64,000 bases of DNA from Nitrospinota bacterium (GCA_009873655.1 WAIB01000010.1:9078-73077), one strand, 5' to 3'. Counted from the first letter of the stretch, positions 11,775 through 15,619 are shown. Program-made: numbers and translations. The notes: generated by a model from the letters alone, not told the origin.

Positions 11775-11790
11775 CCCCACTAGCGTGGGG
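11775..11790. repeat. Short palindromic hairpin CCCCAC-TAGC-GTGGGG; apparent empty site for the 39-nt element
   Basis: Perfect 6-bp stem. The core CCCACTAGCGTGGG is the same 14-mer obtained at 15466-15518 when 15474-15512 is removed. Confidence 0.55.
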
Positions 11791-11832
11791 AGGCAACGAG
11801 CCCCTTGAACAATTTACAGCTTTTGAAAATCA

Positions 11833-11940
11833 CCCTCACCCAAATCTTCCAGGAAGCTTTAAGTCCCTTCTCCCCTGGAGGGCGTTAAATTTTACCTTTG
11901 GCTTCGTGCCCCGCAGGGGTAAGAAGGCCGGGATGAGGGG
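11833..11940. repeat. REP-like intergenic palindromic element (CCCTCACCC...CCTTCTCCC-loop-GGGAGAAGG..GGGATGAGGG type), interrupted by a 39-nt insert
   Basis: Outer arms CCCTCACCC (11833) and GGGATGAGGG (11930-11939). The inner 9-bp hairpin CCTTCTCCC/GGGAGAAGG is perfect once 11883-11921 is removed. Confidence 0.6.
11883..11921 (+). mobile_element. 39-nt miniature insertion, copy A
   Basis: CGTTAAATTTTACCTTTGGCTTCGTGCCCCGCAGGGGTA is 28/39 identical, ungapped, to the reverse complement of 15474-15512. It splits a hairpin and has no target-site duplication. Confidence 0.55.
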
Positions 11941-11989
11941 GTATGCAGTTGAACCCATTCTTTACTTATGGATTCATAAAATTTCCGCG

Positions 11990-12700
11990 CTATTCGGCGC
12001 AAATGAGGTCGTAGACCTGCTGGTATTTTTCTTCAACCCTTCCCAGGTCAAAACGAAAACGGTCTTTGTCCATTTTTTCGTTGGTTTCCCAATCCCATAA
12101 CCGGCATCCATCGGGACTGATTTCATCACCCAGGAGCACTTCGCCTTTATGTCGGCCGAACTCCAGCTTGAAATCGACCAGTCTTATTTTTCGTTCCTTA
12201 AAAAACTCCACCATCAGTTTATTGACCCTGAGTCCTGCCGACTTCAAAATCTCAACCTCTTCTTTGGTGGCCCAGCCGAAAACGTCAACATGACATTCGT
12301 TGATCATGGGATCGCCTAAAGGATCACTTTTGTAAAAGAACTCCATAACGGGTTGCTCATCAAAAATCCTTCCTTCTTCGATGCCCAACCGCTTGCACAA
12401 ACCTCCTGCTGCGACATTTCTAAGTACCACTTCTACGGGAATTATCTCGAGGTTTTTTACCAGCATTTCCCTGTCATTGAGGGATTTTACAAAATGTGTT
12501 TTCACCCCGTTTTCTTCCAGGTATTCAAATATACGACTGGATATATGGTTGTTCATCACCCCTTTATCGACGATCGTCCCCTTTTTTTTCCCATTAAATG
12601 CGCTCGCATCGTCCTTAAAATACTGAATCAACAAATCCGGGTCAGAGGTTTTGTGCAAAATTTTTGCCTTGCCTTCATAAATCTTTTCTAGTTTTTCCAT
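11990..12700 (-). CDS. purC: Phosphoribosylaminoimidazole-succinocarboxamide synthase
   Basis: Motifs YEGKAK, FKDDASAFNG, IPVEVVLRN, LVDFKLEFG, DEISPDGCRLWD, DKDRFR. Confidence 0.97.
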   Translation of the reverse strand: MEKLEKIYEGKAKILHKTSDPDLLIQYFKDDASAFNGKKKGTIVDKGVMNNHISSRIFEYLEENGVKTHFVKSLNDREMLVKNLEIIPVEVVLRNVAAGGLCKRLGIEEGRIFDEQPVMEFFYKSDPLGDPMINECHVDVFGWATKEEVEILKSAGLRVNKLMVEFFKERKIRLVDFKLEFGRHKGEVLLGDEISPDGCRLWDWETNEKMDKDRFRFDLGRVEEKYQQVYDLICAE

Positions 12701-12710
12701 AACAATCTCT

Positions 12711-14006
12711 TTAACTTTTAAAGATCCGGTTAAAAATGATATTTATATTTTTGAATTGAGCTTTCAAGTTAAATATCTTATCGATCTCCTGCTCAGTCAT
12801 TAATTCGCGGATTTTTTTATCTTTTTTAAGCAGCTTTAAAAAATTTGTTCCTTTGGTCCAGGATTGCATCGCATTTTTCTGAACCAGCCGGTAAGCTTCT
12901 TCGCGGGTGATGCCTTTATCGACCAATGACAGTAATACACTTTGGGAAAAAATCAGGCCTTCTGTCTTTTCCAGATTGCGCATCATGTTTTCCGGATAAA
13001 CAATCAAACGCTCCATCATTGTTGTCATTTTCCTTAACATATAATGGATGAGAATGGTACTGTCGGGCCCAATTACCCTTTCCACTGAAGAGTGGCTGAT
13101 ATCCCTTTCGTGCCAGAGCGGCATGTTTTCAAGGGCCGCAAACGCATTTGCCCGGACGATTCGCGCCAGGCCGCACATTTGTTCCGACACCACGGGATTT
13201 CTTTTATGAGGCATGGCAGAAGACCCTTTTTGTCCACTCGAAAAAAATTCTTCCGCCTCCAGAACTTCGGTTCTTTGAAGATGCCGGATTTCCGTCGCGA
13301 TTTTATCAATGGTACCGGCAACAATCGCCAAAGTGGTAAAAAATTCTGCGTGCCGGTCTCGTTGAATAATCTGTGTCGAAACCGGTGCTGGTTTTAATCC
13401 CAGCTTGGAACACACATATTTTTCCACCTCCGGGTGTATGCAGGCAAATGTTCCAACCGCACCTGAGATTTGACCGTAGGAAATACTTTGCCGGGCGCGC
13501 TTCACTCTCTCAATGTTGCGTCCTACTTCTTCATACCAGTTTGCCACCTTCAGCCCAAAAGTAAGAGGCTCGGCATGGATTCCATGAGAACGGCCCATGG
13601 TCGGGGTCATTTTATGTTTCAAAGCCTGGGTTTTCAAAGCTCCCTGAAAAGCCTTTAGTTCCTTTAAAATAAGAGTGGAAGCCTGCTTCAACTGGACTGC
13701 CAATGCCGTGTCGAGCACATCCGAAGAAGTCATACCCAGGTGCATATAGCGGGCCGAGTCTCCCACGTATTCCGCAACGCATGTGAGAAAAGCGATGACG
13801 TCATGCTTGACTTCCCTTTCAATTTCATCAATACGCTCTACCTTGAAATCAGATTTTTCCTGAATATCTTTTAAAGCGGATTTGGGAATTTCCCCGCGCT
13901 TCGCCAATGCTTCACACGCAAGAATTTCAATTTTCAACCAGATTTTAAATTTGTTCTGCGGCTCCCAGATGGAAGCCATTTCGGGAAGTGTGTAACGTGG
14001 AATCAA
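12711..14006 (-). CDS. purB: Adenylosuccinate lyase
   Basis: Signature GSSAMPHKRNP, HLGMTSSD, GRSHGIHAEP. The likely start is TTG 14006 (MIPRY..., 431 aa) rather than 14096. Confidence 0.95.
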   Translation of the reverse strand: MIPRYTLPEMASIWEPQNKFKIWLKIEILACEALAKRGEIPKSALKDIQEKSDFKVERIDEIEREVKHDVIAFLTCVAEYVGDSARYMHLGMTSSDVLDTALAVQLKQASTLILKELKAFQGALKTQALKHKMTPTMGRSHGIHAEPLTFGLKVANWYEEVGRNIERVKRARQSISYGQISGAVGTFACIHPEVEKYVCSKLGLKPAPVSTQIIQRDRHAEFFTTLAIVAGTIDKIATEIRHLQRTEVLEAEEFFSSGQKGSSAMPHKRNPVVSEQMCGLARIVRANAFAALENMPLWHERDISHSSVERVIGPDSTILIHYMLRKMTTMMERLIVYPENMMRNLEKTEGLIFSQSVLLSLVDKGITREEAYRLVQKNAMQSWTKGTNFLKLLKKDKKIRELMTEQEIDKIFNLKAQFKNINIIFNRIFKS

Positions 14007-14115
14007 AATAAAATACCCCAAAAAAGGAAATAATCCCGAAAAGACGAAGGGAAAATTCATTAATATGATATAAATGCCCGAATATATTAAACACAAATTT
14101 CTGGTAAATCAATAA

Positions 14116-14604
14116 ATGAACACAACATTACATGTTTGCTTTGTATGTCATGGAAATATTTGCCGTTCCCCGCTTGCGCAGGGGGTAATGGAAACACTGG
14201 TAAAACAAGAGGGAATGGAAAAATCCATCCTGGTCAGTTCGGCAGGGGTCAGCGGATGGCATGTTGGCGAACCGCCTGACAACCGGATGCAGGCGACCGC
14301 CCAAAAACACGGGGTGACACTCAACAGCCGGGCACGTCATTTTCAAGCACACGATTTTAAACAAATTGACCTGGTTTTAGCCATGGACCATAGCAATCAC
14401 GAAACTCTAAGGGCGATGCGGCCATTGACGGAAACACGAGACAAACTTTATTTGTTCCGAAAATTTGATCCCAATAATAAAGGCGACCTGGAAGTCCCCG
14501 ATCCTTATTATGGCGATGGGAGAGGATTCGAACTTGTTTTTGAAATGGTTGAAAGAACCTGCCCGAAAATTCTGGATCATTTAAAAACAATGCTCCAGAT
14601 ATGA
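14116..14604 (+). CDS. Low-molecular-weight protein-tyrosine phosphatase
   Basis: P-loop VCHGNICRS and DPYY; ATGA overlap with the next gene. Confidence 0.92.
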   Translation: MNTTLHVCFVCHGNICRSPLAQGVMETLVKQEGMEKSILVSSAGVSGWHVGEPPDNRMQATAQKHGVTLNSRARHFQAHDFKQIDLVLAMDHSNHETLRAMRPLTETRDKLYLFRKFDPNNKGDLEVPDPYYGDGRGFELVFEMVERTCPKILDHLKTMLQI

Positions 14605-15473
14605 AAGATGAAATCAACAAATTACTGGAACCCCTGCTGGGAGCCACCGTAAAATCCACTTACTCAACGGGAGGGGGAAGCATCAATCAAACACAGGTAC
14701 TGGAATTAACCAATGGGGAACGGGTTTTCATGAAGCATAATTCGAATCCCCCTACCGATTTTTTTTTAGCTGAAGTAAAGGGCCTTCGCCTTCTCGCACA
14801 GGCTGAGAACGGACCGAGAATTCCCAAACCCATTGCTCTTCAATCCGGCTCACGTCCCACTTTCCTTATAATGGAGTACCTCGAAAATTCCAGCGAAAGC
14901 AAAAATTTTTCTGACCGGCTTGCCCGGGCTCTCGCCGAACTCCACCGAATAAGTCAGGATCATTTTGGACTGGACCATGATAATTTTATAGGCAGCACCC
15001 CGCAAAAGAATGACCTCGAAAAGGATGGAATCGTTTTTTTTCGAGACCAGAGAATTGAGTTTCAGAGGCAACTCGCTCGAAAGGCGGGCCTTCTGCCTGC
15101 TGCCATCGACAAAAAAATCGATTCACTTTGTGAGAATTTAAACCGGTATATGGATACCACTGGAGAAAAACCCGCACTGATGCATGGAGACCTTTGGTCC
15201 GGAAATTATTTCCCAGACTCAAAAGGGAACCCCTGCATATTTGATCCTGCGGTGTATTATGGGTTGCGCGAGGCAGATATAGCGATGACAGAACTTTTTG
15301 GCAGGTTACCGCAAAGGTTTTACGATGCGTACCATGAAGCTTTTCCCATGAATCCCGGTTACCCGGAAAGAAAAGACTTGTACAATCTCTACCATTTATT
15401 GAACCACCTGAACCTCTTTGGCGGTTCTTATTTGTCTTCCGTGCAACAAGCGGTCAACCGGTATGCCCACTAG
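14601..15473 (+). CDS. Fructosamine/ribulosamine 3-kinase family protein
   Basis: Motifs GGGSIN, FGLDHDNFIGSTPQ, LMHGDLWSGN, FDPAVYYG.RE.D.AM, LYHLLNHLNLFG. Confidence 0.92.
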   Translation: MKDEINKLLEPLLGATVKSTYSTGGGSINQTQVLELTNGERVFMKHNSNPPTDFFLAEVKGLRLLAQAENGPRIPKPIALQSGSRPTFLIMEYLENSSESKNFSDRLARALAELHRISQDHFGLDHDNFIGSTPQKNDLEKDGIVFFRDQRIEFQRQLARKAGLLPAAIDKKIDSLCENLNRYMDTTGEKPALMHGDLWSGNYFPDSKGNPCIFDPAVYYGLREADIAMTELFGRLPQRFYDAYHEAFPMNPGYPERKDLYNLYHLLNHLNLFGGSYLSSVQQAVNRYAH

Positions 15474-15512
15474 TACCCCTACGGGGCATGAAGGCTAAGG
15501 AAGCCTACAACA
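15474..15512 (-). mobile_element. 39-nt miniature insertion, copy B
   Basis: Reverse complement TGTTGTAGGCTTCCTTAGCCTTCATGCCCCGTAGGGGTA. It sits inside CCCACTAG|CGTGGG, directly after the kinase stop codon. Confidence 0.55.
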
Positions 15513-15619
15513 CGTGGGTGGCAGAAAGGCCACGGATAATAAATTTTTGGGAATTTTAAGAGGCAAAACAATGTTGTCGGTCTATTTGGGTATCGACCTG
15601 CTGGCCCTGCGCCTGGCAG

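Follow-up and report, generated by a model that had tools for sequence, protein, structure and literature searches.

A gene-less 39–41-nt element that splits small hairpin repeats in Nitrospinota

Two copies, termed A and B, of a non-coding 39-mer interrupt small hairpin repeats in a 64,000-nt stretch of a Nitrospinota bacterium (GCA_009873655.1, WAIB01000010.1:9078-73077; hereafter the window), the parent assembly of which comprises 2.53 Mb in 59 contigs with 44 % G+C. Under the favoured reading (probability about 0.6), A and B are old, fixed copies of a 39–41-nt non-coding insertion element that is specific to one family of Nitrospinota and is moved in trans. The 39-mer family itself is real and well delimited. 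A preliminary description, made from the window alone, had proposed either a very small non-autonomous element or an excision scar. The former, in the sense of a gene-less element, is supported by many copies with exact ends; the latter was not borne out, since the copies nest, form tandems and keep a covarying structure.

Insertion as a discrete unit

The element enters DNA as a discrete unit. Its anatomy was analysed in a sample of 3.05 Mb (own genome plus selected regions of relatives), in which a profile hidden Markov model (HMM) retrieved 322 full-length copies, 295 of them unique. For the 209 copies that neither abut another copy nor are nested, 13 nt of left flank and 13 nt of right flank were joined and searched by blastn-short with up to 3 mismatches. 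An empty-site paralogue was present in the sample for 65/209 copies at the exact ends, as against 0–4/209 when the boundary was shifted by 1–2 nt or one element base was kept, and 6/209 with permuted flanks. From the contrast between exact and shifted ends it follows that the ends are base-exact and that no target duplication is formed, the latter of which had been claimed for A and B together with an apparent empty site.

The 173 distinct junctions group into 81 clusters, 60 of them singletons, and the largest target family accounts for 44 junctions. Within a given target the interrupted bond may vary: the repetitive extragenic palindromic (REP)-like hairpin is opened at GGG^AGAAGG by copy A and on contig C33 (31337), versus GGGAGA^AGG on contig C10, and a CGTC-type repeat is split at two different sites. 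Filled and empty alleles in relatives, as anticipated in the preliminary description, were found for one orthologous pair, i.e., the hairpin following the stop codon of the gene to the left of A (CCGGGCCACGCCCGGTGGGTA), which is empty in genome G007 and doubly filled in G001 (after GCC and after GGG). For A and B themselves no empty site in the same hairpin was recovered, the orthologous spacers in 11 and 14 relatives of the genus, respectively, being free of the element but too diverged to align this hairpin. A and B are old and fixed in their own lineage, and the family appears to be inactive in the own genome.

Conserved ends and fold

The family consensus reads 5'-YGTKATAT...TTCRTG-CCCS-GNA-SGGG-TA-3' with a length of 39–41 nt. 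A constant length of 39 nt, as suggested earlier, was not observed: the 295 unique copies measure 39 (176), 40 (47), 41 (69), 42 (2) or 43 nt (1). All of them terminate with GGTA, and 279 start with YGTK. Compensatory variation is evident in the hairpin stem (pair 30-34: CG 227, GC 53, TA 7, TG 2, GG 2) and also between the first base and position 24 (TA 144, CG 134, CA 11, TG 3, other 3), the covariation of the latter amounting to 0.75 bit versus at most 0.16 bit between position 1 and any other column of the element.

An independent structural alignment, for which G001, G007 and G024 supplied 60 distinct sequences, yielded the same picture: pair 1-24 is UA in 40 and CG in 16 sequences, pair 2-23 is GC in 57, AU in 2 and GU in 1, pair 25-39 is UA in 58 and pair 26-38 is GU in 57. 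Altogether 99.1 % of the cells pair, and the covariation score lies above those of all 500 shuffles. Apart from the 3' hairpin and the 1-2/23-24 helix, no column pairs stand out in covariation. The conserved fold thus consists of a 6-bp terminal hairpin with a GNA triloop, which reaches the last nucleotide and is stacked on a 2-bp helix formed by positions 1-2 and 23-24. Since the covarying pairs 1-24 and 2-23 lie beside the foot of the hairpin, the 5' and 3' ends, and hence both flanks, abut at one nick, and the functional strand is recognisable by its constant G26.T38 wobble. The 24-nt 5' part is long and unpaired apart from the pairing of its first two bases, with TTCR standing 5' of the stem.

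Rfam covariance models matched the copies and the window region at chance level only (E ≥ 0.066), with none of the matches on the element. Guide-target pairing between flank and element was considered and dismissed, as only an association of subtype and flank emerged (L-2 with position 1, 0.18 bit), which is not of Watson-Crick type and is confounded by genome. Likewise, folding of A together with its flanks gave an alternative pairing with z = -1.7 and explained nothing further.

Nested, tandem and truncated copies

Inner copies reside inside the hairpin of outer copies at the border of 5' arm and loop, TGCCCS^GNA (e.g., TGCCCC^GAAGGGGTA and TGCCCG^GCACGGGTA), and in nested arrays the 3' tails of the outer copies are stacked in matching order. 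Iterative excision of full copies uncovered 17, then 4, then 1 further full copies, so that nesting is up to four deep; a shifted-excision control is uninformative here, since the HMM also accepts copies with a loop altered by 1 nt. In addition, 67/295 copies are joined directly, head to tail, to a neighbouring copy, and inverted pairs in G041 lie within larger duplicated blocks. In six nested cases at different loci (L076, L161, L106, L052, L128, L066) the outer 5' arm right before the inner copy reads TGAGCC instead of TGCCCC.

About a dozen partial copies are devoid of the 5' part, and most 3'-truncated matches represent outer halves of nested copies. In search of a longer parent with the same ends, the partial HMM matches in the 3.05-Mb sample were found to be truncated copies or the outer parts of nested ones, and not one of them bounds a coding element. 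The only coding element found at a 39-mer is a guest of the IS110 family (see below).

Target choice and orientation

Preferred landing sites are other small hairpin repeats and the 5'-arm/loop boundary of the element's own hairpin, which gives rise to the nested and tandem copies. A fixed orientation is kept with respect to the target. In the most frequent target repeat, 70 copies occupy the GAAGA^ATC bond in forward and none in reverse orientation, with 82 empty sister sites in the sample, and junctions recur in the same orientation in 150/226 cases and as the reverse complement in 3/226, counts that may be inflated by co-amplification.

Guidance by structure rather than sequence, as proposed in the preliminary description, is at best weakly borne out. 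In predicted single-strand folds of the restored sites, the junction coincides with the 5'-arm/loop boundary in 24/173 cases (13.9 %) versus 5.8 % of control bonds, corresponding to a 2.4-fold enrichment, and with the loop/3'-arm boundary in 2/173 versus 6.4 % of control bonds. The flanks also display a base bias over 146 distinct junctions, G prevailing at -5 (104) and A/T at +2 (121) and A being nearly missing at -2 (2), yet without a fixed word. Fold enrichment and base bias together indicate that structure contributes, the preference being not purely structural. Several of the targets in Nitrospinota genomes fit the pattern of CGTC-tagged REPs (CGTC-ATCGC...GCGAT-CCA), for which passages of Di Nocera et al. 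2013 (PMC3733652) give a CGTC tag, a stem beginning with AT and a CCA tail.

Relative to the neighbouring genes no orientation rule emerged, the copies being located in convergent (18), co-directional (16), opposite (13) or divergent (10) settings or inside crude open reading frames (ORFs; 7). Among the 150 of 183 matches listed for the complete chromosome of G041, 51/72 are on the minus strand in one replichore and 48/78 on the plus strand in the other (p = 8e-5, with the origin placed from dnaA alone); this weak bias may reflect gene orientation.

Copies A and B in the window

A and B are the sole copies in the window (Table 1). Recomputation confirmed their identity of 28/39 positions and of 23/27 over the last 27, and a 19-nt 3' motif common to both occurs twice in the window versus no match in 100 dinucleotide shuffles. 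With a covariance model for which both were among the ten model-building sequences, A scores 54.3 bits (E 9.6e-13) and B 48.6 bits (E 4.9e-11). At element position 5, copy B has the family consensus A in three of four metagenome runs (window 15508 C>T).

Deletion of A restores, as described before, a perfect 9-bp hairpin, CCTTCTCCC-CTGGA-GGGAGAAGG, by joining 11866-11882 to 11922-11927, and deletion of B restores CCCACTAGCGTGGG, which is identical to the intact sequence at 11776-11789. Both restored sequences are members of repeat families with uninterrupted copies in the own genome. The REP-like 23-mer restored at A has 8 uninterrupted matches (≤3 mismatches), a ninth match being the filled copy on C10, and the 14-mer restored at B has 4 uninterrupted matches (≤1 mismatch). 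Further filled copies of the REP-like hairpin are located at C33:31337 (same bond as A) and at C10:45232 (3 nt further on), and a junction of the B type, CCCACG^CTAGYGGG as read along the element, is found again in a cluster of four members from four other loci.

Table 1. Positions in the window of copies A and B and of the repeats associated with them
Feature	Position	Strand	Remarks
Mini-element, copy A	11883-11921	+	39 nt; C/G subtype (C1-G24 pair); terminal hairpin TG-CCCC-GCA-GGGG-TA
Mini-element, copy B	15474-15512	-	39 nt; T/A subtype (T1-A24 pair); hairpin TG-CCCC-GTA-GGGG-TA
REP-like hairpin interrupted by A, left part	11866-11882	+	CCTTCTCCCCTGGAGGG; 5' arm, loop and first 3 nt of 3' arm
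Right part of the REP-like unit split by A	11922-11941	+	AGAAGG (11922-11927), then tail of GGATGAGGGGG type
Left half of the hairpin split by B	15466-15473	+	CCCACTAG; contains TAG, stop codon of ORF 14601-15473
Hairpin interrupted by B, right half	15513-15518	+	CGTGGG
Uninterrupted small hairpin	11775-11790	+	CCCCACTAGCGTGGGG; directly after a stop codon; empty paralogue of the target of B

The REP-like unit split by A is part of a composite repeat, ...CTCAAGGGAGAGG-(~12 nt)-CCTTCTCCCCTGGAGGGAGAAGG-TTAGGATGAGGGG, which is present on the own-genome contigs C18, C33, C38, C44 and C58 and forms on the minus strand of C18 a 79-nt tandem array of three units about 79 nt apart.

Distribution and copy number

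That further genomic copies exist was confirmed in the own genome and in relatives. The own genome holds 12 covariance-model matches at E ≤ 7.6e-7 (next best E 0.004), ten of which were found by construction, since the model was built from them; those at C11:160063 and C58:43828 are new. All 12 copies are intergenic. Matches were obtained in 18 of 41 relatives, and within the genus of the window copy numbers range from 0 per genome (e.g., G010, 91 % complete) to 90 (G001). The highly repeated state is represented by G041 (= G082), the complete 2.86-Mb chromosome of which contains 183 matches, many with identical scores; many identical copies are found in G041 as well as in G081. These two belong to one genus with G066 and G083, all four holding at least 71 copies each, and with G067, which at 97 % completeness holds none.

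The element is essentially confined to one family of Nitrospinota. Among 92 Nitrospinota genomes of at least 80 % completeness, 32 contain matches at E ≤ 1e-7 (the top per-genome counts, at least 71, being lower bounds), distributed as 29/51 genomes in family f1, 2/17 in family f2 and 0/23 in seven further families. An exact-pattern scan with one genome per prokaryotic species returned at least 130 stretches; 77 of the 80 listed are titled as Nitrospina, Nitrospinaceae, Nitrospinales, Nitrospinota or Nitrospinae metagenome-assembled genomes, and the three outsiders among these 80 reach only 14.7–18.3 bits with the model. True copies (38–50 bits) are carried by three IMG/VR contigs (L200, L201 and L202; 38.8, 50.1 and 4.4 kb), which may represent Nitrospinaceae phages, prophages or host fragments.

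In the near-complete relative G081, identical copies form long runs with a regular spacing of 77–120 nt (C1:490489-492440 and 1266282-1269535). These are either arrays of a host repeat plus the 39-mer or the outcome of a distinct amplification mode.

Candidate mobilising enzymes and an IS110-family guest

Y1/HUH transposases and IS110-family recombinases had been put forward as possible movers; neither proposal was borne out, as the presence of their genes does not follow copy number. Incompleteness of metagenome-assembled genomes weakens single gene absences but leaves those in complete chromosomes unaffected. A Y1_Tnp domain (PF01797) is encoded in G013, G021, G023, G024, G027, G036, G066 and G067, the last of which is without 39-mer copies. 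None of six Y1 loci is flanked by copies on both sides; at one of them a lone copy lies at a distance of about 830 nt, past another ORF. In G013 (L194, 880-1869), G021, G027, G066 and G067, a 325–332-aa protein with an N-terminal Y1_Tnp domain is encoded in single copy, independently of the 39-mer copy number; it looks like the product of a domesticated or RAYT-like gene. The Y2 transposase (PF04986) was not matched in five genomes, the control genomes being silent too.

IS110 genes yielded 24 matches in G083, one in G041 and one partial match in G081. They were not found in G001, G007, G022, G024, G066, G067 and G072, all of which except the copy-free G067 are rich in 39-mers. The IS110-family element of G083 is 1.2 kb long, encodes a 336-aa ORF and is located inside the hairpin of the 39-mer (L203-L208 on G083:C1, e.g., L203 1264-2481). 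In 5 of 6 copies examined (out of the 24 matches) it is inserted between TACCCC and TTCGGGGCATGAA, the point of insertion being ambiguous by 2 nt (TT). The homologue in G041 (L199, G041:C1:1855953-1859378) is 89 % identical and shares the right junction. While the insertion sequence copies of G083 are about 99 % identical, the 39-mer remnants and outer flanks around them differ from copy to copy; hence, the insertion sequence landed in pre-existing 39-mers. Its precise position in the hairpins of different 39-mers identifies the 39-mer as a landing pad for this element. Moreover, the bond used is that between loop and 3' arm, as opposed to the 5'-arm/loop bond of self-nesting. The IS110 guest does not explain the spread of the 39-mer.

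Comparison with known systems

Nearest in behaviour are the small dispersed repeat (SDR) elements of Nostocaceae. Elhai et al. reportedly described in 2008 SDR1-8 as gene-less, 21–27 nt long and nested in themselves and in other short repeats. SDR elements, which passages of PMC5861425 and PMC3116915 treat as well, share with the 39-mer the lack of genes, a size far below that of miniature inverted-repeat transposable elements, the insertion into other short repeats and own copies, a secondary structure with compensatory changes, the confinement to a lineage and the lack of a known mover. By description the two differ in length and host (21–27 nt, cyanobacterial, versus 39–41 nt, Nitrospinota); furthermore, the 39-mer possesses a long unpaired 5' part, and its first two bases pair beside the foot of the hairpin.

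REPs are defined by a GTAG or CGTC tag beside the stem, and CGTC REPs are without a known transposase, according to passages of PMC3733652. REP/REPIN repeats resemble the 39-mer as short intergenic hairpin repeats of tens to hundreds of copies that are lineage-specific and serve as landing sites of IS110 type. However, the 39-mer has neither a GTAG nor a CGTC tag at its stem (TTCR stands 5' of the stem, YGTK at the 5' start), and its abutting copies commonly stand head to tail instead of as inverted doublets. Different from the REP/RAYT relationship, Y1 genes neither track the 39-mer nor are flanked by it. The CGTC-like REPs of several Nitrospinota genomes are targets of the 39-mer, not relatives.

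Elements of the IS200/IS605 type have hairpin ends, the foot-adjacent bases of which pair with the cleavage site, and move via a joined-ends intermediate, as worked out for IS608. The 39-mer resembles them and the derived PATEs in lacking target duplications and terminal inverted repeats, in its strand specificity, in ending with a hairpin and in its foot-adjacent pairing. Classification as an IS200/IS605-derived PATE was nevertheless rejected: only one hairpin is present, the pairing involves nucleotides 1 and 2 of the element itself, insertion is not tied to a fixed tetra- or pentanucleotide, and most carrier genomes lack TnpA/TnpB. The rolling-circle transposons IS91 and Helitrons have a hairpin at the 3' end only, lack inverted repeats, generate no target duplication and form head-to-tail tandems. 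All of these traits recur in the 39-mer, which differs from them by the absence of a fixed target tetranucleotide or A^T site and by a 20–100 times smaller size.

IS110/IS1111 elements are said to target REP hairpins (Tobes and Pareja 2006), and IS621 and ISPpu9 are inserted in REPs. In the same manner, the insertion sequence of G083 and G041 relates to the 39-mer as IS621 or ISPpu9 to REPs, i.e., as guest and not as mover. A CRISPR repeat was discounted, since the copies are dispersed, abutting or nested, form no regular spacer arrays and match no Rfam CRISPR model. A joint term search for literature on extragenic palindromes in Nitrospina found no paper in the library covered, a wider search returned only general papers on repeats, and searches on work of the SDR kind led only to papers citing it.

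Possible mode of movement and alternative explanations

For a non-coding insertion element moved in trans, the moving form would be a single strand, most likely of DNA. Its folded ends could present both junctions to one structure-specific enzyme of the nuclease/ligase type supplied in trans, and movement might proceed by cut-or-copy-and-paste via a joined-ends intermediate (circle or tandem). The mobilising enzyme would presumably be none of the usual suspects. It is conceivable, albeit doubtful, that this amounts to an undescribed type of DNA movement, in which a 39-nt strand acts as its own substrate, the first two bases docked at the hairpin foot, and an enzyme, host-encoded or unrecognised and belonging neither to Y1, Y2, IS110 or TnpB nor to the reverse transcriptases, inserts it by cutting and rejoining into hairpin targets including its own loop.

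Several observations weigh against movement in trans of an insertion element. No recognised transposase tracks the copy number of the 39-mer: PF01797 was not matched in G000, G001, G007, G022, G041 (complete, 183 copies), G072, G081 and G083, and TnpB (PF07282) is absent from all five high-copy genomes searched, with a working positive control. No joined-ends intermediate was observed. Contigs from 4 metagenome runs (4 studies) bridge A or B without any 39-nt skip, bearing in mind that contigs drop rare variants. Many copies stand in highly repeated contexts, and part of the copy number may stem from co-amplification with the host repeat. Finally, the predicted-structure preference at the targets is modest (see above), and the replichore bias in G041 weakens to p = 0.05 when only one copy per 10-kb bin is counted.

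Some of these points would suit the 39-mer being a passenger module of mosaic REP arrays, spread through gene conversion, through slippage between homologous copies of a repeat or through annealing at replication forks in the manner of an oligonucleotide, and devoid of transposition machinery of its own. The large share of one target family among the junctions (44/173) alongside 82 empty sister sites, the identical copies in near-identical contexts of G041, the tandem arrays and the lack of an enzyme tracking the element agree with such passive spread. It is nonetheless unlikely in view of the 60 singleton junction contexts, the differing bonds within one target family (both REP-like and CGTC-type), the precise self-nesting to four levels and the conserved pairing of the ends, which plain homology-driven copying would not need. 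Reverse transcription of an RNA copy into nicked hairpin targets, i.e., retro-insertion as has reportedly been proposed for the cyanobacterial SDR elements, would account for the dozen or so partial copies without the 5' part and for a functional strand with a G.U-compatible wobble. Still, it must be regarded as quite improbable, given that RVT_1 is encoded in only 2/5 high-copy genomes (G024 and G041; not found in G001, G007 and G022, each at least 90 % complete), that the copies show no orientation bias with respect to adjacent genes (see above) and that neither target duplications nor an A-tail are formed.

Very little speaks for the 39-mer as attachment site or remnant of an IS110-family insertion sequence. 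The 1.2-kb element in the hairpin of the G083 39-mers and the shared right junction of its G041 homologue could be so interpreted, but IS110 was not found in seven genomes, six of them rich in 39-mers, the nearly identical insertion sequence copies are flanked by differing 39-mer parts, and their bond is not that of self-nesting. It is similarly hard to believe that the 39-mer is an immobile motif under host selection (terminator, protein binding site or small RNA, for instance). The intergenic location of all 12 own-genome copies and the conserved, covarying hairpin would be in line with a host function; 0 to more than 180 copies among relatives of similar gene content, nesting and tandems, lack of conservation at orthologous loci, the absence of an orientation rule relative to genes and the lack of an Rfam match are not.

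With 39–41 nt, the insertion element considered here lies at the lower size limit of mobile DNA. The movement of such short repeats without genes, among them SDRs and CGTC REPs, is an unsolved problem, on which the 39-mer offers handles by its base-exact ends, the covarying pairing of end and hairpin, its strict orientation and the depth to which it nests in itself. Together with sister genomes that carry either none or more than 70 copies, complete chromosomes included, these features make phyletic profiling for the enzyme as well as biochemical tests feasible. The 39-mer moreover remodels the intergenic DNA of Nitrospinaceae, which are the principal nitrite oxidisers of the sea.

Other short repeats

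Intergenic regions of G041 (L162-L170; L166 9475-10251) are packed with interleaved families of short repeats of the GTCATTCTGAACGCAGTGAAGAATCTC and GTCATCCTTGAGGA types, 162/325-nt tandem arrays among them, and many conform to the pattern of CGTC/TGTC-tagged REPs. Another small repeat family (~CCACT.GGCGTGGGGCCAAT.GGTCGAT.CCCGTAAAGC) immediately follows stop codons in several genomes of the genus and is located, in the own genome, at 11775-11815 of the window as well as at C29:7675, C31:22561 and C37:14008. It is split by the 39-mer at more than one bond, and its 3' part resembles the T-arm of tRNA.

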